NCBI GenBank assembly: GCA_031835245.2 | Contig: JAVKOQ020000102.1 | Span: 124,001-173,876, forward strand | Direction: 5' to 3' | Length of the DNA stretch: 49,876 bases | From: Balamuthia mandrillaris | Lineage: Eukaryota | Shown here: piece after piece, positions 13,211 through 49,400 of the stretch | Layout: each line of letters begins with the position of its first letter | Position numbering within the stretch: position 1 is the first letter of the stretch | Position numbers and translations under genes: made by a program | The notes under the pieces: generated by a model | The model's input: only the letters and a program-made list of their open reading frames with translations | Told to the model about the DNA's origin: nothing | The model's database searches: none

Positions 13211-16200
13211 CTTCTTCTTCTTCTTCTTCTTCTTCTTCTTCTTCTTCTTCTTCTTCTTCTTCTTCTTCTTCTTCTTCTTCTTTTCTTCTTCTTGTTCTTC
13301 TTCTTCTTCTTCTTCTTCTTCTTCTTCTTCTTCTTCTTCTTCTTCTTGTTTTCGCCATCGCTCTTCTTTCTCTGCTCTTTGCCTGCGTTCCGGCGCGGTT
13401 CTCACCAGCTCCTTTATCTCCTCCAGCAAGAGTTTTGGGATGCTGTTGAAGACTTGACCCTTGATGTTAGCCCACAGCAAAAGTGGTCCCACATGAACAA
13501 GTACATACAGCCAATGTTCAACCGTGTAAGGGTGGTGTTGTGCTCTACTGGCGAAATATTTGGGCGTATATCCAACAGATAAACGTGGGTATATCCGGCC
13601 GGATTTCCGGAGAATATACGCTGGATAAACGGTTGGCAAATATACGGCGAATATCCGCCAAATATACGCAGGGCCGTTTATACGGCAAATATCTGACAAA
13701 TATACGGAGGGCAAATATACGTCGTTTATACGACTTTTTTCTTTGAAAAGTGTTTCTATGAACCAAGTATATGATGCAAATGCTTCTATTGGAAGATCAC
13801 ATGGTATCTGATCAATAGATTACGATAAAAATCAAAATTATTATTATATATTTATTAAAAGCTCTCTCTTTCTTCCATCACTTCTTCACTATTCTTTTCT
13901 CCTTGTTGTTTATCATTTGTTGTTGCTGTAACTAGTTGATATGTTGGTAATTGTGATGGGTCGCCATCCATTCTGACAGATGGATAGTTCTATTACTAAG
14001 AGAGAGAGAGAGAGAGAAAAAAAGAAGCAATGTTACGCAGTGCGGTGTCTAACAATGAAAGAGGTAAACCAACCTGAAAACCCGTGTTACCTAAGAGCTG
14101 TTTGCACGTGGATAAAAAGGCACCAGCTCCTTTGGGAAGCTTGATAGTAGGATTTGTTGCAAATAAGGCATGAATTAAAAGAGATCTGGTGGAAGGTATC
14201 TCGTCAACTTCGGTTGGGTAAAGCGTATAAAGCAAAGTGCTGTAAAAAGCTTGGTTTAAGTGCGGCTCACACTCGCTGATAAGTGAGTCACGAGAAATGC
14301 CAGCTTGCAGTGGGTGTCTGACTTGCCTCATTTCTGCTGATTCTATATCCCATATAGGAATGAAAGCAAGTAATGCATGTTGGTACAGACGGTCCTCATT
14401 TTCCACCACTTTTACAGCTTGCTGAACAGCTGTGATCGAGGGGCTTTGCTCAGAAAGCTAGCAAAAGAAAAATAAAGAAATAAATAATATGCTTACAAAT
14501 AGAGAACGAACGAAATGAAAACGAAAGAGGGAGGAAGGACCGTTAACGAATTCCCTATCATTGATAAAAACACTTCACTATCTGAATCAGCTTCCAATAG
14601 CCATAAATGATAAAGAACAGCAATAAACAGCAACTTGAAGTGTTCCATGAGTTTTTCGACCGTGCATTTAATGTTTAGCTCAAGCTGTGCTTCAACTATC
14701 AACTTTTAGAGTGTTTATGGTGGGAAACAAATGAGAAAGCCACAAATATTTGAATGACAACAAGAACAAGAACAAGAACAAGCACGAGAACGAGAACAAG
14801 AATGAGAATGAGAACAACAACAAGAACGCGAATGAGAATGAGAACAAGAACGCGAACGAGAACGAGAACAAGAACAAGAAATACAAAAGAGAATGAAAAC
14901 GAGAACAAGAATGACAAAAGAGAAGTCAAAAGTAGAAACAGAAGAAAAGAAATGAAAGTGAACCAATGCAGGTGCCAGGCTTGTGTTCAAAGGGTAACAG
15001 TAATCTTTTATCCATTGCAAAAGGTATTCCTTGTTGTTGACTGTATCAACGGAAGCCCATAGGAGAGCCCTATCTTTCCTTGTTTGAGCAATTGAGAGTG
15101 TAAACTCTGACCATCTCACGTTTCGAGCTTTCCACTTTTGCAAAGACTCATATGCCTTGGCAAGTACCGTTGTATTCATTGGAGGGGGATTTGTAAAATA
15201 TTGTATTGCTTCATCTGTAATTGTGCTTCGAAACGCCTTTGAACAGTCTTCAACAAGAGACGTTCTACGCCTCTTGTTTTTGGGCTGTACCTGAGTGGCA
15301 CCTTATTATTTAGAAAATAATAGTTAACAAGAGAACAGAAGCAAGCAATACACAACTCACCTTTTTCCTTTGGATTCTGTTTCCTCTTTGCAAACTTATT
15401 ATAAGGTTCAAGGGTGATCCAGCTTTTTCGACTGGCTTTGACAGATCGTTTTGGGTTTCTTCGCAAACTCATTTTGTGAGCTGTTCTTCGACCGCCATCA
15501 CCTTCCTCTTGGTCAGCTATTTCCTCCGCGTCAGTTGCATAACTAGGCAAGGCGCTCATCATGTCTTCTATGTCTCTTGTTGCTTTCTCTTTTTCTTTAT
15601 CCTCAGTACTATATTCATCTTTGTCCTCCTGAGTCGGTGCAGGCCTCTTTCTGTTTGTAGTGTTAGAGGTTTGAACTTTAAAAGTTGTCAACGAAGAATG
15701 GGAGTAATCTCCCTCGACACCAGAAAGTGAAGATGGTTGCTCATCGTCGCTGTGCTGCAAAGTACTTTCACCTTCACCAAGCTGGTTGTTACCACAATGT
15801 GAGGTACATGAAACAAACAACTTAGTGAAACACTATGAATCACATAAAAACAAGTAAAATGAAAAACAACAACTTACTATTGAAGAGGATGGTCCAGCTG
15901 TTTCTTGGCCAGATTCGGTATCTGAATCACTTTTCACGTCAAAAGGTTGACCTTCATACAAAGCATGATTTAGTAAAACTGTATTCAAAACATAAACAAG
16001 AGTAACGAACCTGAAAGCAAGAACCTGGTCTTCATTCCAGTAAACATGACATACCATACATTCCCTTTTGTTTGTTTGTTTTAACAATTGAATGAGAATG
16101 TGAATGATGAACGATGAACCAGAATGAGAACGCGAACTAGAACGATGAACAAGAACGCGAACACAAATGATGAACAAAAACGCGAATGCAAACAAGAACG

Positions 16201-19200
16201 CAAGAATAATGAACAAGAACGTGAACGCAAACAGGAACGATGAACAAGAACACAAACAAGAACGCAAGAATTGTGAACAAGAACGCGAACGCAAACAGGA
16301 ACGCAAACCAGAACAATGAACAAGATTGTTAACGCAAACAAAAACGCCATAACGATGAACAAGAACGCGAACGCGAACAAGAACGCAAGAATGATGAACA
16401 AGAACGCAAACGCGAACAAGAACGCAAGAATGATGAACAAGAACGCAAACGCAAACAGGAACGCAAACCAGAACGATGAACAAGATCGTTAACGCGAACA
16501 AAAACGCCATAACAAAGAACAAGAACGCGAACGTGAACAAGAACGCAAGAATGATGAACAAGAACACAAACAAGAACGCAAGAATGATGAACAAGAACGC
16601 AAACGCAAACAGGAATGCAAACCAGAACGATGAACAAGATCGTTAACGCGAACAAAAACGCCATAACAATGAACAAGAATGCGAACGAGAACAAGAACGC
16701 AAGAATGATGAACAAGAATGCAAACAACAACGCGAACAAGAACGCAAGAATAATGAACAACAACGCGAACAAGAACGCAAGAACGATGAACAAGAACGCG
16801 AACGTGAACAAGAACGCAAACGCGAACAAGAACAAGAACAAGAACAAGAACAAGAACAAAGTCGCCAAAAACCAAAACAAAACAGAACCCGTTTTTGCAG
16901 TCATTTTTGTCTGTGTGGTAGATGATTTCGTTGCCACCGAAGTTGATAGCAACACAAGCCCAAGGGTAGAAGTCCAACTTGTTGGCAGCTTTTCCAGTCG
17001 CACGTTTGAGAGCTTCAGCGTAATGGTTGAAAATGAGAGGAAAGGTTTTCTGGAAGATTGCCGCACACTTCTCAACAATTGCTTTGTTGTCTTTGATCCA
17101 GCTCCGTGTTGGTAGGGAGTCGGTTCCTCTGCAAAGAGACGTTGCTTGTTGGCTTCGTCGCCAGTGGCCCACAACGGCTTGGCCATCACGGCCTCTATTG
17201 ATTTTGAGACGCTTCCATGCAGTCGCGAAGTTCTGTGATGATAGAAGTAACTGTTCGTTTTCTTCTAAAGACAGAAAACGTGGCCACAATCTAGCCACTG
17301 TGTCACCATAAATACTTCGCCACTCCAAATACCCACCTTCACAAAAGATGATACGCTTTGATGTTATGGCAAGCCTTCTACGATAAGCATCAGCATTAAA
17401 TCTAGCATAATCACCATAATAGATCTATTAACAAAAAGAGTTAAAACGCAGAGTGAAAACAGTAACAGCACGAGGACAAGGACGAGCACCAGCACCAGCA
17501 CCAGCACCAGCACCAGCACGAGCACCAGGACGAGCACCAGCACCAGCACCAGCACCAGCACCAGCACCAGCACCAGCACCAGCACCAGCACCAGCACCAG
17601 CACCAGCACCAGCACCAGCACCAAAACGAGCACAAGAACAAGAACGTGAACAAGAACACAAACAACAACGCGAACAAATAGGATAATAACGCTTCACCTG
17701 CTGATGGTTAAGAGGCAAGGCATGCTCTACAAAAAGTATTGAAGCATGTGTAAGTCTTGTTGAAGTAACATCTGTAGAACCACTAAAACACAACGATGGA
17801 TCAAACTAAGGAATTTAAACAGATTATCATTAGAAGATAGGATTAGACATCTCCAAAGAAAAAGTGAAATGCAAAAGAAAACGTTTAAATGTACCGCATT
17901 ATCAACAGCTGTCGTTTGTTCAGCCAACCGGACATTTGTAACTCTTGGTGATGGTTCAGAGTTTTGATATTTTTTTTATGACGATAAGCTAATCTTCTTC
18001 GGCGCTTGTGATTAAGTTCTTTCTTCTCCATACTCGGTTCCTGTTATGCGTGTTGTCAATCAATGAAATAAACAATTATCTTGAATGAGACTATTAAACC
18101 TTTTCAGCTCGCATTGTTGGTTTAGTGTTTTGGGGTGACGGATTGTTATCCACCATAGCACTATTTTTTGGCTTTTTGGCATGGTTACTATTGTCTCCTT
18201 TGTTTCCTACAGGCCTTTTCTTTGTGTTCCTACTTTCTGCATGAGCATCAGAAAAATATAAAACCTGTTAATAACTGAATGGTGAAATGGAGAGAAAGAC
18301 GTGTTTCCGTGGAGAGAGCACATAAGCAGCAAAGAGACTATTTATCCCCTGCACAACAACGCTAAAGCGATTGTTGCGCAAAAGGCCACCATCTCTCTGC
18401 ATATGTTAGCTGAGCTGATACAACAAAGAGACTATTTATCCCCTGCACAACAACGCTGAAGCGATTGTTGCGCAAAAGGCCACCGTCTCTCTGCATATGT
18501 CAGCTGATACAACAAAGAGACTATTTATCCCCTGCACAACAACGCTGAAGCGATTGTTGCGCAAAAGGCCACCGTCTCTCTGCATATGTCAGCTGATACA
18601 ACGAAGAGACCATTTATCCCCTGCACAACAACGCTGAAGCGATTGTTGCGCAAAAGGCCACCGTCTCTCTGTACCAACAACAAAGCATTTGTTGTGTGTG
18701 ATCTCGGTGAAGCGATAGCAATGACGTACCAGGTTGCAGCGAGACTTGAATTCCTTTGAGCAATGGCACCGTTGCAGGACCTTGTCCTGCTGGATGTTGC
18801 TGCAAGGATGGCCCCAGATCCTTGCAAGAATGGGTAGAGAATGGAAAAGAAAGGTGGGGGGAGGACCGTCGAGGAGAAGAACCCCGGGAAGAGCACTGCC
18901 GAGGAAGAGAACGCCTGGAGGACCATTGAGAAGGTGAACGCTGGGAAGAGCGCTGTCGAGGGTGAGAACGCTGGGGAGAGCGCTGTCGAGGGTGAGAACG
19001 CTGGGGAGAGCGCTGTTCAGAAGGAGAACGCTGGGAAGAGCGCTGTTCAGAAGGAGAAGACAGGGGAAAGCGCTGTCGAGATGGAGAACCGGGAGGGGAG
19101 CACTGCCCAGTTGAAGGTGAAAAACACAGGGGGGAAGTTGGCCAAGTTGAAGGAGGAGTAAAAGGAGAGTACTCCCTTGTCGAAGAACAAACGGAGGAGG

Positions 19201-20649
19201 TAGGTCCTGTAGTAGAAGGGGAAAACCCCTGCCAAGAAGGGGTAGAAGAACTCAAAGGAGAACGAAGCAAGGAGCGCTGAGGACCAACAAAAAAAAAGTA
19301 AGCAGATTAGCAAAAACAAAATTCTAAGCAATCTTTTTAACGAAAAGAAGGTTACCATGGGTGGACGATCAGAGAGCAGCCAACAGACCTGTTGTGCGGT
19401 GCGTGATCAGAAGTATTTTCTTTTTCTTTCCCCCCCAAAAGAAAATAATTTATGGCTGCAGTATTGCTGCTCGATTTGAGGTCGCTTATTCCTTCTGATT
19501 CTTCACTTCGTCTGCAGAATTTGTTCTCTAGAAAACACCAATGCGGGGGAAAAAAGAGAAAGCAGAGCAGGACCATGGAGGACGACTGGTTGGCTTTTCC
19601 TTCTCACACAGAAGAATGCAACAGCACTTCCATCAGCTGGGGTTCATTATTTGAAGATATTCAGATCAACAAAGAGTGTAGAGCCATCAAAAACAATGAG
19701 AGAAACGACATCGAAACTGTAGAGAGCGAAGATGACAGCTACGAACTCAGCAGTAATAACACAGACAACGAAAATAGCGCAGATGCAGATAGCAACAACG
19801 ACAGTGGTGATAGCGATGAGAGCGAAGACTGCAATGACATCGAAGCCAGCGAAGAGATCGAAGAGAGTGAAGAGAGCGAAGCCAGCGAAGAGAGCGAAGA
19901 GAGCGAAGAGAGCGAAGCCAGCGAAGAGAGCAAAGAGAGCGAAGCCAGCGAAGAGAGCAAAGAGAGCGAAGCCAGCGAAGAGAGCGAAGACAGCGAAGAG
20001 AGCGAAGCCAGTGAAGACAGCAAATCCAGCGAAGACAGTGAAGACAGCGAAGCCAGCAAAGACAGCAAAGACAGCGAAGAGAGCGAAGGCATCGAAGCCA
20101 GCGAAGACAGCGAAGAGAGCGAAGAGAGGGAAGAGAGCGAAGACAGCGAGGAGAGCGAGGAGCGCGAAGGCATTGATGACAGCAACAACTGTGACAACAA
20201 CGATGGCAACTATGATAGCAACGGCAATGATGACAGCAATGGCAACAATGATAGAGAAGATGACAGAGAGGATTGTGATATTAATGGTGACGATGACAGC
20301 GAATACTGTGATGACAGAGAAAGCTGTAATGACTGTGATGACGGAGAAGAGAGCATTGACTGCGATGACATAGAAGGCAGCGATGCCAGCAAAGACTTTG
20401 ATGACAGCGATGGCAATGATGACTGGGACTATGACGAAGGCTGGGATGACAACAGAGGCATTAACTACCTTGATTACGTTGCAGAGAGTGAAGATGACAG
20501 AGAAATACCAGGACTTGTACCGCAACACAAGCATCATACGTCTACACAAAGCAAAACAACACTAAAACGACTTGCACAACAGCAACTGAGAGCATATAGA
20601 AGAAAAAAAATGCTTCATTCAAATGAAGAAGAAGAAGAAGAAGAAGAAG

Positions 20650-20681
<32 letters not shown>

Positions 20682-23600
20682 GCGGCAGAAGAAGAAAACT
20701 TTGAAGACGAAGAAAACGAGAAGGAAGGAGACAGCGAAGAACAAGAAGAAGATGCAGAACAAAACGAACACAAAACTACAGGTTAGTGTCATACTTTTCT
20801 ATTGCAGTTTTTATTGAAGTCTTATGATTAACTGTCATGCGGTACTTAAATGTAGTCACCATAGAGCTCAAACAAAGATATGAAGGTTTTCTAACAGCAA
20901 TCGTTGATGCTGGAGGCACACCCGCACGTGTTGTTATTCCAAGTTTTCCTGTAGCCAAGCTGTACCTTAACAAAGTGGACTTGTATTTAGCTCAGTGGTT
21001 AGAGCGCAAGAGTCGTAATCGTTGGAGCCGAGCTGTTTTATTAGACGCGCTTAGACTTGCCCAGACAGAGAGCCCATTGCTGCAAACCGAAAAGTTGACA
21101 GAGTATCGTCTTAGAAAGCTGCAAAAGGTGGTGGATGCTCAACTAGGCGTATTAAAAGCTACGTCATCCACCTTCTATTTCAACACGCCAACTAACAAAT
21201 GCACAAGTACAACGGTAGCTTACATTCCTTGTGAATGGTTTCTTCGACAAGCCTTTGCACAGCCAACACTTGCCTTTGAGATGGAGAACTGGACCAACCA
21301 GCTTGAAGCTTCTGATATTTATCAGAAGAAGCGTTGGCAGCAACTGGTGACGGATGGGGAGCTTAACGAGCCTACAAATGTCATGCTCGGCCTGTATTTT
21401 GATGACTATGACCCTGCCAAGGTTGATTTTACTTTTATTTTATTTTATTTTTCCACATGCATTACTTTCTGTTTGCTTAATTGCTTTTTCTTATATCTTT
21501 GTTGCCTTTCTGTCTTTTTGTTTCTCTCTTTCTCTCTTTCTATCTCTTCTCCTTTTGTTTCTGTTCTTCACAGTTTTCCAACTATCCTCAATTAAAGCTA
21601 AGTGCTCTGAGATTAGTTCCATTAAATTATAGAAATAAGGTTGGATTTTCTTTGTCTTTGTCTTCATCTTTGTCTTACTTAGATTTACTTTTTATTTTTC
21701 TTCTTTCTCATCCTTTTGTTGTGGGCGGCTTTATTTATATATTTAGGTTCGATCTGATGTGTATAATTGGTGGACACCTGCTATATTTCCCACTTGTGTT
21801 CTCAAGCATTTTGATAGAGCAGCAATACTTGCTCCATTTTACCGAGAAATGCAGCACCTTGAAGAGGGAATTTTAATTTACAACTCATATCGAAGAGCAT
21901 ACATTACAGTTACATGCAGAGTTATTACAGTTATCGCTGATTTACCAGCAAAAGCTTTTTTAACTCACTCTCAATCAAGCTTCTCTTCAATGAAAGCATG
22001 GTGCGTTCGTTGTTATAGTAAGAGAAACGATCCCTTTATGCATAACAAGTTAAAAACTGCTCAACATTATCGAACACTTGGAGATTCTATCACCGCTCTA
22101 GAGCCTACAAGTTAGTATTGCAAAACTCTTATTGCAGAGACCAATATTACTGGCAAATCGCAGTTATTTAGTTTAAAAGGCTTGGTATTTTTTGTTATTC
22201 TCTCTTTTTTTTTTATTGTCTATCTTTCTTTTTTAAAAAAAATAACAATGTACCGTGTTTGTCTCTGCATGCTTTACCAGGAACCTAAACACATAGTGAA
22301 TGATCTAATGCATAATGAGCTTCAAAATGGGTGCTTAGTATGCAACATAATGGCTATGATCAAGGGTTTACGTGAGGGCAAGGCGTGGTCCAAAGAACAT
22401 GATTGAAAGCTAAATGATCTCTTTGAAATGGTTCGCTTGCCTTGCAAAATGAATAAACCGCAGGTTTGTGTTCGAACTTCTAGCTATCTTTATTTTTTGG
22501 TTTTATTGTATGCTGGGTTTGGAGTAATGCTTTCTTTTTGGGTTTAAAGGCCGACAATCTGTATCCTTCCAAAGCGACACATAAACTTAGCATACTCACA
22601 GCTATGATTTTAGTGTTACCAGCTCTTCAACAAGGCGTTCCTTGCTCATGCAGTGTTTCTCACAAAGTGACCCCGCGACATTTAGTGTCGGCGTTTCACT
22701 TACTCACAAACAAACATACAGCTTTAGATCACTATCTCTGTTGTAGAGCTTATCTTCTTATTGCTTCTCAATTATTCTGCAGAGAGCCACCCACTAACAC
22801 TGCGCAGTTGGAAAAGTCCATTCGCGCACACCAAGAGTACTTCCAGCATTTATATGGTTCCAAAATTAAGCCGAAAATGCATTACTTGAGCCACTACCCA
22901 GAAGATATCCAGTTGTGGGGCTCTCTTCGGCATCTGTGGTGCTTTCCAGGTGAGCGGCTTAATGGACTAGAGGGAAAGGAGCAAACAAACTGGCATCAAG
23001 ACGCTTCAAGCAGGCAGAATATGATTCAAAGGCAGCGCGCCTTTCGCCATCACAAGTTGGACTCAACAACTTACAACTTCACTATTATGGAAATGCCGAT
23101 TGGACAGGTTGCGATGACACCAGCTGCGGTTCAACTCTTTTTAGAATGGGTTTGCTTCTTTTGTTGTCTGGTTTTTTGTTTATATCAATCAATCTCGGCT
23201 AACTTGTTGTTATTCATTCATTCATCGTTTAAAGGCCAAAAGAATACAACCTCAGTCTGTTGGTGAAATTACGCAGTTCGTTATTACCTCCGACTTATCT
23301 TTGTTTCAACATCTTGTGCTACCTCATATGGAGCTGTATACTGGCGAAGTAGCTATTGTTAAAGGATCTCCCTTCTTGCTTGTTCCTCCTTTTGTTATGC
23401 CAAAAGTCATTGCTGTTAAAATACAGGACTTCTTTTCCTTTACTGCAACAGTTAATGGACAGCCAACTACTTACCATGGAGCAAGAATCTCTGCTGCTTA
23501 CAAGGCCGCTATTCAGAGATCTTATTTTTTTACACCTGTCGTTAACTTGCCTGCTGTGCATCTACTCTCTGATTCCTTTGCTCAAGAGTGCGTGTTCTCT

Positions 23601-24457
23601 TTGGAACAACTGCAACGGCCAGCAGTTGTTTCTCACTCAAATCTTTACGACCCTACTTCCTCTTTAGTTTTACTTGATTGTTTTTAATTTAAAGCAAGCG
23701 GTCTTTAATCTTTATAAACTTGGTAATATTGGGTGCATGCTCTTCTTGGTAATGGTAATGGACCGTATAAACGACTGTAGAAACGTCAAATTTGCCTCCG
23801 ACCGTATATCTGGCCGTTTATTTGAGCATTTTACCTAATATGGAGAAAGAAGGCGGATATCCGCCCGTATTTCCGCAAATTTGACCAGTAGAGTGGCGCA
23901 AGGCGTCTGCCATCGCTTTTCCTCCTGCTTCGCCCAAACGGTTCGCTACAGGTTCATAGCCTTGTTAATAAACGAAACATGTTTCTCTCTCCCCTACGCT
24001 TGTAACTCCTTGCGTTCTGGGTTACGTGCCATTAAGGTCCAACGCTGTGAGGGTGGTGTTGTGGCGCAACGCCTCAGCAATCGCTTTGCCCCCCTCTTCT
24101 CCAAGGTGGTTCGCTGAGAGAAACATAAGAAAGAGGTGAGAGCGGGTTCCACCATAAGCAAGAAACAGGATGTCATGTAAGAAGAAGTTTCATACTTGAA
24201 AGGTCCAACAAGGTGAGGGTGGTGTTGTTGCGCAAGGCCTCTGCCACTGCCGTTCCACCCGCTGGTCCCAACCTCCTCTCTGGCAGAAGAAGCATGAAGA
24301 GAGAGAGAGAGAGAGAGAGAGGAAGAAGTTAGTTCTGTTCGTTTCTCACGACAACAAACGCACTGTGCAAGTCCACTTGCGTAGCACCAGGCGGGATCAA
24401 CTCTTCCCAGCGGTGAGCCTTGGTGGCAGCAGCTCTGTCCGTAAACCAACCGAACAT
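10076..24457 (-). CDS. LRR - coiled coil - protein kinase - RING/Rcat (RBR-like) gene, copy 1, interrupted by the 10.35-kb transposon; probably inactivated
   Basis: Exons 24457-24364 (MFGWF..IPPGATQVDLH), 84-nt LRR exons 24279-24196 and 24113-24030, split LRR exon 23945-23894 + 13540-13509, coiled-coil exons ~13453-12482 and 12418-11985, last exon 11890-10076 with VLKEF, HRDVKPQN, DFD, YMAPE, RING CVVC..C..HFVCGGC..C..C and CPRC..FDGCFALTCSRC..FCAWC. One frameshift within the (GAA)n tract near 13283. Confidence 0.85.
13182..13347. repeat. (TTC)n/(GAA)n microsatellite encoding poly-Glu in the kinase-gene coiled-coil exon
   Basis: About 55 TTC units with rare interruptions. Confidence 0.95.
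13543..13735. repeat. Left TIR and subterminal repeats (AAATATACG/TTTATACG, about 7 copies)
   Basis: gaatatacgc, caaatatacggc, caaatatacgca, tttatacggc, caaatatacgga, caaatatacgtc, tttatacgac; motifs ggccgttta and atatccgcc shared with the right end. Confidence 0.8.
13914..15978 (-). CDS. Transposon-borne multi-exon ORF of unknown function (C-terminal part of the TET/JBP-like gene, or a separate TnpA-like accessory gene)
   Basis: Exons ~15978-15878, 15782-15361, 15301-14963, 14702-14541, 14457-14073 and a short terminal exon join in frame through GT-AG junctions (…GPSSSI|LGEGEST…NPKEK|GATQVQPK…LAPAL|LIVEAQ…NSLT|LSEQ…TGFQ). No family recognised. Confidence 0.55.
16090..16857. repeat. AAC/GAAC-rich low-complexity array with ~155-160-bp higher-order repeats, likely intronic
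   Basis: Block aacgcaaacagga..caaaccagaac..tgaacaagat..ttaacgc.aacaaaaacgccataac occurs three times (~16290, 16450, 16600). Confidence 0.85.
16858..17424 (-). CDS. TET/JBP-like 2OG-Fe(II) dioxygenase exon (189 aa); upstream exons extend toward ~19400
   Basis: In-frame exon with GHWRRSQQATSLCRGT, AAIFQKTFPLIFNHY and YPWACVAINFGGNEIIYHTDKNDCKNGFCFVLVFGDF (HxD at 16917-16909), matching the TET/JBP pattern PF..vaiN....HxDxxD..G....vfGdf. Candidate upstream exons 17783-17698, 18040-17895 and 18264-18100. Confidence 0.75.
17485..17622. repeat. (GCACCA)n hexamer microsatellite in an intron of the TET/JBP-like gene
   Basis: About 22 GCACCA units. Confidence 0.95.
18330..18672. repeat. 89-bp tandem repeat, about 3.8 copies, inside the transposon
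   Basis: Unit caaagagactatttatcccctgcacaacaacgctgaagcgattgttgcgcaaaaggccaccgtctctctgcatatgtcagctgatacaa starts at 18330 (94-bp variant), 18424, 18513 and 18602. Confidence 0.95.
18870..19140. repeat. 30-bp tandem repeat, about 9 degenerate copies, open on both strands (QRSPSEQRSP on -, ENAGESAVEG on +)
   Basis: Unit gagaacgctggggagagcgctgtcgagggt repeated; probably the Ser/Pro/Arg-rich N-terminus of the minus-strand gene. Confidence 0.8.
19575..23687 (+). pseudogene. CACTA/EnSpm-type (TnpD-like) transposase, multi-exon, long acidic N-terminus, in-frame stops
   Basis: Motifs in canonical order: VMLGLYFDDYD (~21393-21413), VITVIADLPAKA, WCVRC, HIVNDLMHNELQNG, KPKMHYLSHYPEDIQLWGSLRHLWCFPGERLNG (DUF4218-like). 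Frame continues through TAG 22113-22115 and TGA 22404-22406. Link to the acidic exon 19575-20781 is uncertain. Confidence 0.85.
23755..23893. repeat. Right subterminal repeats and TIR
   Basis: ccgtataaacg, ccgtatatc, ccgtatttcc (reverse complements of the left-end motif), ending atttgaCCAGTAGAG. Confidence 0.8.
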
Positions 24458-46477: not shown

Positions 46478-49400
46478 ATGCATTCACGTAGCACTAAAGT
46501 GTTTATCCCGCCTGGCGTCACGGAGCTAAAGCTGCCTGGTATGTACGCCTACATGTGCGTGCTTGTTGCTTTGCTGTGGTGATGAATGTCCTGTCATGAA
46601 CATGTTGTTGTCTTATGTTGTTGTTGTTGTTTCTTGCAGGTAGATACTTGGGACCAGCGGATGGTAAAGCATTGGCGCAGGCCTTACGCCAGAACACCAC
46701 CCTCACCGTTTTGAACCTTGGACCTTTCCGGTAGGTACACCTGCGTGATTGAAGGAAGAAGGGAGGGAGGGAAGGAGATAACCAAAACGAACTCGTTTGT
46801 TTGGCTCATGCAGGCAACTGGTTGGGCAAAAAAGGAGGAAAAGCAGTGGCGAAGGCCTTACGCCAGAACACCACCCTCACCGTTTTGAACCTTGCGAGTA
46901 TGTAACTGTTTCGTGACCATCTAAAGTCGTACTAACATGTTGCTCTCTGTCGAATGGACCCGCTGCAGGGAACCAGTTAGAGGAGGAAGGAGGCAAAGCA
47001 GTGGCAGAGGCCTTGCGCTACAACACCACCCTCACCTCGTTAAACCTTTTGTGTATGTAACCGCAACTGCCTTTTAACGGAAGGAAGGGAGAGAGGTGGC
47101 GGTGCACCGGTGTGATGCTGACTGATATGCTGATATCTTTCTTTGGTTATGATATCTTCAGCCAACAAGTTGGGCGTGGGCACTGGAAAGGCGTTGGTGG
47201 AGGCCCTTCACCACAATGTCACGCTTACCACCCTGTGGCTTGGTGGCGGTATTCCGGAGCCCTTTAAGACGGAAATAGAGAAGCTCATGCAACCACGCAG
47301 ACAAAGACCACTAAGAGAACCGCTAAAACGGAAACGAGAAGCAGAGAAAGGGCACGGCGAGTCGGTTGGAACAGCCTTGGCCGCCCTTCAGGCTGTACGC
47401 CCCTCTCGAAGCTTCGCTTTATCCGGATCCGCCAAGCAGGTCTTACAGCAAGTCTGGAATTATGCGGCTGGCATGGACAACAAAGCTGGAACAGCCTTGG
47501 CCACCGCTCTTGCTGCCAAAGCTGAGCTGGAAGCCATGCAAAATGCTATAACAGAAGGCGAGGCATGGCCGGATGAAGAGCTGTTGGAAGAAAGGAATAA
47601 GGCTCAAATGACGCTGGTGGAGGCGGTGCAGCAGGCGCACATGGCGTGGGAGAAGCAGGCCGGGGTGCATCAGGACTGCACGCAATGGATACATCAGTTG
47701 AGAAGGATTTTCTCTCGAGAAGATGGAGAGAGAAACGGAAGGAAGCACAAGACAACAGAACCCGAGAGGAAGAAACGGAGAAAAACGGAAAAAGAAATCG
47801 AGAAAGAACGAGAGGGCAGCGACGGGCTGCTTCGAAGCGCAGAAGAAGCATTGAGAAGATTCCAAGAATGGCAAGCCAGGCATGCAGCACGTCAGAAGGA
47901 ACTTGAACAGGAAACGGAGAGACAAGCTACACGAGTTGGCGAAGCCTTGCAACGTCTTGGATCCGCCTTCTCTGGTTTTATCTTCTTCTTGGCGTTCCTT
48001 CTTTTTCCCATGAACTGACTTTGGTTGGCTTTGTTTTCTTGTTTTCAGGGTGTTCACCAGAGGAAGAACTGTTGGAAGACAACCATGCGGCCACTTTGGT
48101 GGAGGCCATCCACAATGAACAAGACTTTCTGCGCCGTGGCCTGGATGGTGTCTCTGCGCGTGAATTGTACCAAGGCATTGAGGACCTTATCGCCGGTTTG
48201 CAATGGGTGTGTGAAGAGCTCCAAGAACAAAGTGTGAAGATGAAGGGTTTGCTGTGGGAGAAGATGCAAGCGGAGCGAATCCTGGCCCATCCTCTCGACT
48301 ACCAACAGTTGAAGGACCTGCAGAGGGCCTGCAAGAAGGCCTGCAATAAGGTGCGATATGCCCAGGCTAGTGTGGATGCGGCCGAAGGTAAAGAAGAGCG
48401 AGCAAAAACAGAGGACATACTAGCCAAGGTAACAAAGCAATGGAACCAACAAGCGACCCTGTTAGAGGTTTGTGTGTTTGCTAGTATATTCTCCTGTAGT
48501 TCTTCTTTTTCTTCTTCGCTCATGCGCTTTGTTCATTAAAACAGAGCACAGCTTTGCAGTTCGTGAGCCTGAGCAACAGCAGCCGCCCAGAGCTTCGTTT
48601 CATCCTTAGGGAGTTGGGCCTGGAAGCATTTGACTTGATTGTAGTGGACCGCCGCCTGGACCACTACGACCACATCCAAGTGCTCTTCTCTGCTGGCCGC
48701 CATCGTGTCCTGAAGGCCCAGTTCCAAGGAGAGCCCTGCATGCTGAAGGAATTCGATTTGAACTTGGACCACCCACACTTCATGATGGAGCTAAAGAGGC
48801 TGGCATCCTTGCAACACGAACACATCGTCAAAGCGGAAGCGGCATTTGTTCAAAGTAGTAACGGTGGCACCAGAGGATGCATCCACATGCCGTTTTATAG
48901 CGGAGGCAACCTGTGTGAATGGTTGAAGAATGGAAGAGAAGGAGATAGAAGCGATGCAGAGAAGCAGAGGGTGGGAAGAGGAGTGTTGTTGGCCTTGCAA
49001 CACATTCACAGTCAGAACGTCGTTCATCGGGATGTCAAACCTCAAAGCATCTTCATACAGTCATACGCACAAGCGGTGAAAGAAGGTGAAGGAGATGAAG
49101 GTCAAGGTTACCAACAAGCCCTATTGGGAGACTTCGACATCAGCAGCAAGGCGGGCACAGCAGAGGCCGTGACCATGACTGATAGTTTGAGAAGAGGAAC
49201 ATGGCAATGCATGGCTCCAGAGGTGTGCAATGGAGAGGTTGGACCCGCGGCAGATGTATTTGCATGGGGGCTGCTCATGTTCGATCTTCATTTTGCTGTT
49301 CCTGCTCTTCGAGCGCAAGCGCAAGCGCCTACGGAAGAAGGAAGCGAACATCAATTGACCTCCACTCCTCATTATCTTCTGCCTTCGTCCACTCATATTA

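Follow-up and report, generated by a model that had tools for sequence, protein, structure and literature searches.

The locus described here raises the question whether a DNA transposon of the amoebozoan Balamuthia mandrillaris carries its own enzyme for the modification of DNA. We analysed 49,876 nucleotides of contig JAVKOQ020000102.1 from assembly GCA_031835245.2 (positions 124,001 to 173,876 of the forward strand), in the following called the window and numbered from its first letter, which contain an EnSpm/CACTA-like transposon of 10,351 bp (13543–23893) with a TG duplicated at both ends. An initial annotation, made from the sequence alone, had described a complete element with a transposase gene and a divergent TET/JBP-like dioxygenase gene, and had suggested that the element may modify or demethylate DNA. 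This suggestion could not be upheld, since both the encoded and the spliced product lack the distal histidine, the arginine and several strands of the barrel. The reading that we favour, with moderate confidence, is that the window copy is a non-autonomous member of a multi-copy EnSpm/CACTA-like transposon, most likely one of B. mandrillaris, and that its truncated, predicted-dead TET/JBP gene is likely a decayed anti-methylation passenger.

The TET/JBP exon and its truncation

The TET/JBP-homologous coding stretch comprises 189 aa on the minus strand (16858–17424), with the HxD motif at 16917–16909. The comparison with Tet_JBP that the initial annotation had proposed gave a divided result: the exon alone has no Pfam match and no sequence match in PDB, and a word-index search (103–331 aa) yielded 0 of 85 candidates, but an exhaustive protein search with the exon found 32 homologues, 31 of which match Tet_JBP (PF12851) at E below 0.1 (11 of the 32 above the curated cut-off). 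A profile of this homologue family matches NgTET1 and CcTet with E values of 5e-10 to 8e-9. The HxD residues (H170, D172) are invariant across the 33 rows of the alignment, and all 3 invariant and 9 near-invariant family columns that lie inside the exon are conserved, in an alignment that includes the exon itself. A fold model built from the alignment reached a predicted local distance difference test score (pLDDT) of 79, and a single-sequence model was unusable (pLDDT 34). The top fold matches of the model are CcTet, NgTET1 and TET2 with Z 9.2, 8.4 and 7.8 (next 5.6) and root-mean-square deviations of 4.2, 4.2 and 3.5 over 155, 156 and 165 residues at 10–13% identity; Foldseek alone gave nothing with E below 0.001. 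Judged from the profile matches of the homologues and the fold comparison, the exon is thus genuinely TET/JBP.

The domain is, however, incomplete. The exon spans positions 62–208 of the 273-position family profile (E 8e-40), the chain ranges of the structural matches end just past the HxD region, and the coding sequence ends at FGDF, where an (AACAAG)n tract begins. By the established chemistry of 2-oxoglutarate-Fe(II) enzymes, the part beyond the exon would hold the last barrel strands, the third iron ligand (distal His) and the 2-oxoglutarate Arg. The iron-ligand triad is also given in the accessible part of Kojima 2025 (PMC12730594). CcTet (7vpn, 7w5p, 8jkk), NgTET1 (4lt5, 5cg8) and human TET2 (9hxv) are alike in fold, whereas the distal His and Arg are absent from the element product. 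A profile of the missing part was built from 26 of the 32 homologues, with the homologue P0001 left out as a positive control; it scored at most -1.4 bits in the six frames of the window and in the spliced product, and 56 bits in P0001. The distal His and Arg are thus found nowhere in window or product, so that no active dioxygenase is encoded, and the truncated product is predicted to be catalytically dead.

The gene to which the exon belongs (15939–19358, minus strand, about 514 aa, start codon predicted) was traced from a spliced contig of run X6 (record 26) and from joints in run X11; both runs consist of contigs, and it is by their GT-AG joints that we take them to be cDNA. The X6 contig (951 letters, 0 substitutions) joins 18230–18099, 18039–17895, 17805–17698, 17424–16888 and 16063, and the joint of 16888 to 16063 is also present in X11, which comes from a separate study. 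Thus, of the exon as first annotated the HxD motif stands, but the domain breaks off after FGDF and the donor is 16888 and not 16858. Donor 16888 is cryptic, lying 31 bases inside family-conserved sequence, and the frame stops 23 codons later within the second exon of ORF2, the third gene of the element. The product consists of a Ser/Pro/Arg-rich N-terminus, a basic stretch, two-thirds of a TET/JBP domain and 23 out-of-family residues before the stop (HTDKNDCKNG-ECMVCHVYWNEDQVLAFRSTF-stop); without the distal ligand it cannot bind iron with three ligands. Upstream of the TET exon, five exons provide an open frame of 325 codons that continues into it in phase. The frame of about 514 aa needs one base more than the window has in the T-run 17969–17977, and since the extra T is present in all four runs compared, the frameshift at 17969 is an assembly error. 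Raw RNA runs X13–X15 (about 1.9 Gb each) are uninformative on expression, as 28, 24 and 5 reads were placed, none of them 99% alike and none on the TET exon; in runs X12 and X16–X18 almost none of the element's words are present.

It could be argued that the window copy does encode an active dioxygenase, whose last exon either disappeared when the repeat tract collapsed in the assembly or occurs only in a rare isoform. The tract (16090–16859, simple to compound, AACAAG-based, with higher-order units of 39–160 bp) adjoins the truncation point, no listed contig bridges 16783–16866, contigs drop rare variants, and at least one assembly error is present (17969). Yet the spliced contigs of two studies join 16888 straight to 16063, and DNA contigs of two studies pass from the exon into the masked repeat. 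Moreover, there is no C-terminal piece in the 49.9 kb, upstream exons included, by which a circular permutation was rejected as well, and the EDQVLAFR and LLNHALYEG look-alikes past the repeat tract, in the next exon, score as noise. A hidden last exon is therefore very improbable in our view. Intron retention as a source of the missing domain part was tested and rejected. Apart from this, a contig of run X3 leaves the repeat tract at 16572 into telomere-type TTAGGG repeats; either an AACAAG-type tract also adjoins the end of a chromosome, or a copy broke at this place and was healed.

Boundaries, transposase and further copies

The annotated boundaries, with 9-bp perfect terminal inverted repeats (TIRs), subterminal repeats and a 2-bp target-site duplication (TSD), were confirmed. 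The left TIR (13543–13551, plus strand) reads CTCTACTGG, its reverse complement forms the right TIR (23885–23893, minus strand) as a perfect match, and each occurs once in the window; the two TG copies lie at 13541–13542 and 23894–23895 (plus strand). A 9-bp inverted repeat with a 2-bp direct repeat is common by itself, with 81 such pairs of 2–20 kb span in the same window, so that the insertion is proven not by this pairing but by the empty site, which restores an exon. With the element and one TG removed, the joined flanks form a single clean unit of the leucine-rich repeat (LRR) type and match, in ungapped alignment, the paralogous exons at 24034–24115, 24200–24271 and 46663–47059. This host exon (13509–13542 plus 23896–23945, span 13509–23945, minus strand) is split by the insertion; a contig of run X11 carries the empty site, skipping 13539–23893, with the flanking introns spliced. 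The LRR label is one that we presume from the repeat pattern, as the Pfam search gave no match. The subterminal repeats (ATATAC/AAATAT-type motifs) occupy 13543–13742 on the left and 23694–23884 on the right; a motif picked from these same element ends was counted 24 times in the left 200 bp and 7 times on the right against a background mean of 0.46, and 7 was reached in one of 247 background windows.

The plus strand encodes a multi-exon EnSpm/CACTA-type DDE transposase with a long acidic N-terminus (19575–23687, start and last exon predicted). Its motifs follow in the order D (21401), D (21939), C(2)C (22002), H(3)H (22880–22892) and E (22952), and the B. mandrillaris protein P0041 has the same order (D231, D324, C345xxC348, H577xxxH581, E601); these D/D/E are putatively catalytic by motif order. 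This order corresponds to the description of the CMCT clade (PMC12730594, accessible part). Pfam matches to Transposase_21 (PF02992) remained below the cut-off (E 0.0013 and 0.023), but in Atlas the best feature match of P0041 (0.95) belongs to a cluster with 80% PF02992, and the structure rows reach TM 0.72–0.84 with PF02992 in 7 of 10. Features, structure and motif order bear out the CACTA-type transposase of the initial annotation. Of the other families named there, DUF4218 was not matched in the Pfam search, and the Plavaka domain PF18759 had no Pfam match at E 1 and came ninth in Atlas (score 0.93), below Transposase_21. The plus-strand exons are 85–96% alike to P0041 in five ungapped blocks, but in the assembly sequence the frame of the window transposase is interrupted by stops at 22113 and 22404, through both of which P0041 reads. 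Because of these stops the window copy is non-autonomous, and the element is complete only with regard to its ends.

As to the classification, the TG duplication falls within the 2–5 bp of the CMCT clade, and subterminal repeats and a second open reading frame (ORF) are present as in EnSpm/CACTA. The 5'-CAC(TA) termini are missing, the ends starting with CTCTA, one mismatch from CACTA, and the TSD has 2 bp instead of the 3 bp of plant and fungal EnSpm/CACTA families; 2-bp TSDs are found in non-plant EnSpm elements. The TA duplication of ESTA is also not present, TG taking its place, and the Plavaka termini (TGT or CATCA; PMC12730594, accessible part) are absent from the element ends. We therefore file the element in the CMCT clade as EnSpm-like, with termini and TSD outside the plant/fungal EnSpm, Plavaka and ESTA definitions.

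A second insertion is represented by two B. mandrillaris proteins whose locus tags are three apart and which each lie on a 47,551-bp contig: P0041, the transposase (94% along the query exon), and P0042 (97% along the last exon of ORF2). The P0042 model reads through the same left terminus into a flank unlike that of the window. Its residues 522–603 stem from this flank, making the model chimeric, and contain a presumably integrase-like motif (with no Pfam match), so that a retrotransposon may be the site of this second insertion. As there is a second insertion as well as an empty allele, the transposon family is mobile and polymorphic. Like the known TET+ DNA transposons, this one has a TET/JBP gene inside a bounded, multi-copy element, but an intact TET coding region is lacking in the window copy.

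With respect to gene content, the two head-to-head genes of the initial annotation are correct in their divergent layout (predicted minus-strand ATG at 19358, plus-strand ATGs at 19452 and 19575), but there are three genes, ORF2 having been missed. ORF2 (13996–16047, minus strand) has six exons, about 497 aa, an acidic/basic low-complexity N-half and a C-half of no assigned family; it is delimited by spliced contigs (introns 15952–16010, 15782–15877, 15302–15360, 14703–14963 and 14458–14540) and an open frame, its 3' end being uncertain with a further splice at 14074 likely. The ORF2 frame is separate from that of the TET/JBP remnant. It has no match in Pfam or Atlas by which it could be assigned to a family or to the TnpA type, and SelB-wing_2 was dismissed (E 0.0035, below the cut-off). 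The predicted start codons of the divergent genes are about 95–220 bp apart (19358–19575), which implies that the genes either share a bidirectional promoter of very small size or overlap at their 5' ends. An 89-bp tandem repeat (18330–18671, 3.8 copies) lies inside intron 18237–18729 of the minus-strand gene.

Origin of the TET/JBP exon

If the dioxygenase were a regular part of the element, it should co-occur with it in other copies, a check that the initial annotation had proposed, and this was found in part. The TET exon is present in all four runs compared (four studies) with 0 differences in the listed contigs. However, a variant transcript in X11 (B-type) splices 17697 directly to 16063 and skips the exon; it keeps two upstream exons, in which 5 of 109 and 3 of 148 letters differ, and seems to be without the predicted start codon (joint 19277–19358). 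Variants of X11 at 21324 and 21326 encode P0041 residues, so that this variant is probably the copy with the unbroken transposase. In X1, where contig depth is a weak measure, the variant of the neighbouring exon has depth 47 and the window type 100, and the TET exon is one invariant contig at 117. Finally, at the end of one X3 contig, 15931 runs on into sequence at 18774 (36 letters), which is a possible deletion copy. Co-occurrence of the TET exon among copies is thus incomplete. Another X3 contig shares the intron side at 17699 with different exon-side sequence, and we read this as another gene or subfamily using the same intron start.

Under the passenger reading that we favour, an ancestral element would have had a transposase, a complete TET/JBP gene and ORF2, and the intact enzyme would have oxidised 5-methylcytosine (5mC) or T on element DNA, lifting or evading silencing. 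A deletion in or between simple-repeat introns would have removed the end of the TET gene and joined its transcript to the ORF2 exons, by which the cryptic donor 16888 and the out-of-frame ending would be forced. Whether the exon is included (A-type) or skipped (B-type), splicing does not join the upstream frame to that of ORF2, as expected when two genes are fused by deletion, and a formerly complete passenger would account for the long open upstream frame. Sibling copies would have lost more, with the exon skipped or absent or 15932–18773 deleted, and the window copy would have moved recently, either via a sibling transposase such as P0041 or at a time when its own stops had not yet arisen.

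Methylation in the host is likely from CpG-biased differences between copies. The window copy and P0041/P0042 differ at 49 amino acids in seven ungapped blocks, which correspond to 25 unambiguous transitions, 20 transversions and 4 multiple or ambiguous changes, and 16 of the 25 unambiguous replacement transitions lie in CpG (expected 21%; P 4e-6), whereby the DNA of the other copy was inferred from protein and gapped and low-complexity parts were excluded. In Acanthamoeba, young transposable elements are methylated at CG (PMC12344493, accessible part).

Alternatively, a fragment of a host TET/JBP gene could have been captured once, by transduplication into an intron of the element, and spliced opportunistically as in Tgm-Express-type CACTA elements, without ever having served the element. 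The abrupt exon end at a simple repeat, the use of a cryptic donor, the B-type transcript and the missing of a variant TET contig in X1, where neighbouring-exon variants are present, would all agree with this. CACTA capture with chimeric splicing has been published for soybean Tgm-Express1, where gene fragments inside CACTA-type ends are likewise spliced into chimeric transcripts; there, five unrelated fragments are found, whereas here there is a single one in frame with a long upstream ORF, with transposase and ORF2 kept (PMC1947982, accessible part). On the other side, no close donor was found, the best match being 33% identical, the exon is in phase with the 325-codon open frame (chance 1 in 3), and the form lacking the exon does not itself share the ORF2 frame, which would be unexpected for an ancestral state. 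On balance we consider a one-off capture rather unlikely.

It might also be that the truncated product was retained as a non-catalytic chromatin- or methyl-DNA-binding factor, in which a disordered RS-like arm and the TET N-part help the element in cis or trans. The 514-codon frame is open and spliced, and the exon is free of differences in the four runs whereas in the same copy the transposase is interrupted by two stops. This identity is, however, explained by recent insertion, sibling copies skip or delete the exon, and the B variant appears to lack the start codon. Furthermore, a double-stranded beta-helix without its last strands is unlikely to fold, and the model has no strands after residue 161. 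We hold this for improbable.

Several observations weigh against a decayed passenger, and the first three would suit a capture. The one informative relative with flanking DNA, on a metagenome locus of 2.2 kb (L003), lies beside a hydrolase-like ORF and not a transposase; no intact TET-bearing copy was seen among the contigs and proteins examined; and the upstream exons have no significant similarity to the N-termini of the homologues. In addition, no protein close to the exon is among the matches although the P0041/P0042 copy is annotated, so that TET may be missing from the copy whose transposase is intact. The observed/expected CpG ratio of the whole element (0.82) is not under that of the flanks (0.77, 0.79), and no report of 5mC in Balamuthia was found in the literature covered.

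Relatives and known TET-carrying transposons

The nearest relative of the exon is P0001 (KAL6071598.1), a hypothetical protein of B. mandrillaris with 33% identity over the exon (E 3e-18), whose domain is complete with distal His and Arg. In a quick tree of 28 rows, from which five homologues under 170 aa were excluded, P0001 is sister to the exon (SH-aLRT 95). Following HxD, it carries Gln-Leu-Tyr in place of the xxD of the family. Together with L002 and L003, P0002–P0032 form a large unannotated compact TET/JBP family of about 260–400 aa with a basic N-terminal stretch, mostly on metagenome contigs of 1–4 kb. The L003 member is intronless and located downstream of the hydrolase-like ORF, which we assume to be an alpha/beta-hydrolase. 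The metagenome scan gave 2 short loci without transposase similarity, and no relative was found in viral contigs with query A2; L001, a weak 30-residue match to P0015 in viral contigs, was not confirmed by the family profile at E 0.01. As a relic, the window copy mainly points to the complete paralogue P0001 and to this family.

TET-carrying EnSpm, ESTA and PlavakaB transposons with a proposed anti-silencing role have been described in fungi (Kojima 2025, PMC12730594), so that the novelty seen by the initial annotation is reduced to the amoebozoan host, and to a relic there. With the fungal elements, as far as the accessible text describes them, this one shares the CMCT-clade DDE transposase with C(2)C and H(3)H, a short TSD, a TET/JBP gene inside the ends and a third gene. 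It differs in its CTCTA termini (CAC, CATCA or TGT in fungi), in the TG duplication (3 bp or TA in fungi), in the truncation of the TET gene (mostly not disrupted in fungi) and in HxD, hence it is not of the fungal PE (HxE) type. The survey covers fungal genomes only, and "amoeb" has 0 occurrences in the text accessible. Outside fungi, TET genes including CMD1 are a polymorphic cargo of cut-and-paste transposons in Chlamydomonas reinhardtii (bioRxiv 10.64898/2026.10.09.758095, accessible part), with another host and TET lineage (CMD1 Z 4.0 to our model) and with intact enzymes. For Acanthamoeba, one or few TET/JBP genes are reported, and association with transposable elements is tied to fungi (PMC8889193, accessible part). 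In the literature covered, to which the Iyer papers do not belong, no paper on an amoebozoan TET-carrying transposon was found.

A bolder reading, which we advance only tentatively and rather doubt, is that Balamuthia holds the first amoebozoan lineage of TET-armed transposons: a CTCTA-ended EnSpm-type family would have independently recruited a compact TET/JBP gene from the unannotated clade, intact masters or P0001-type relatives would still oxidise 5mC against CpG silencing, and the window copy would be a decayed offspring. If intact copies exist, the carriage of TET/JBP by transposons would reach Amoebozoa and another TET lineage, which would support repeated, convergent recruitment against DNA methylation, and the CpG-biased decay would be indirect evidence that Balamuthia methylates transposons.

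The host gene at the insertion site has one LRR-like unit per exon (13509–13542 and 23896–24281, minus strand), and a second such gene lies 23 kb off (46663–47059, plus strand). In the host gene, the splice sites of intron 23946–24030 look like GC-AG.

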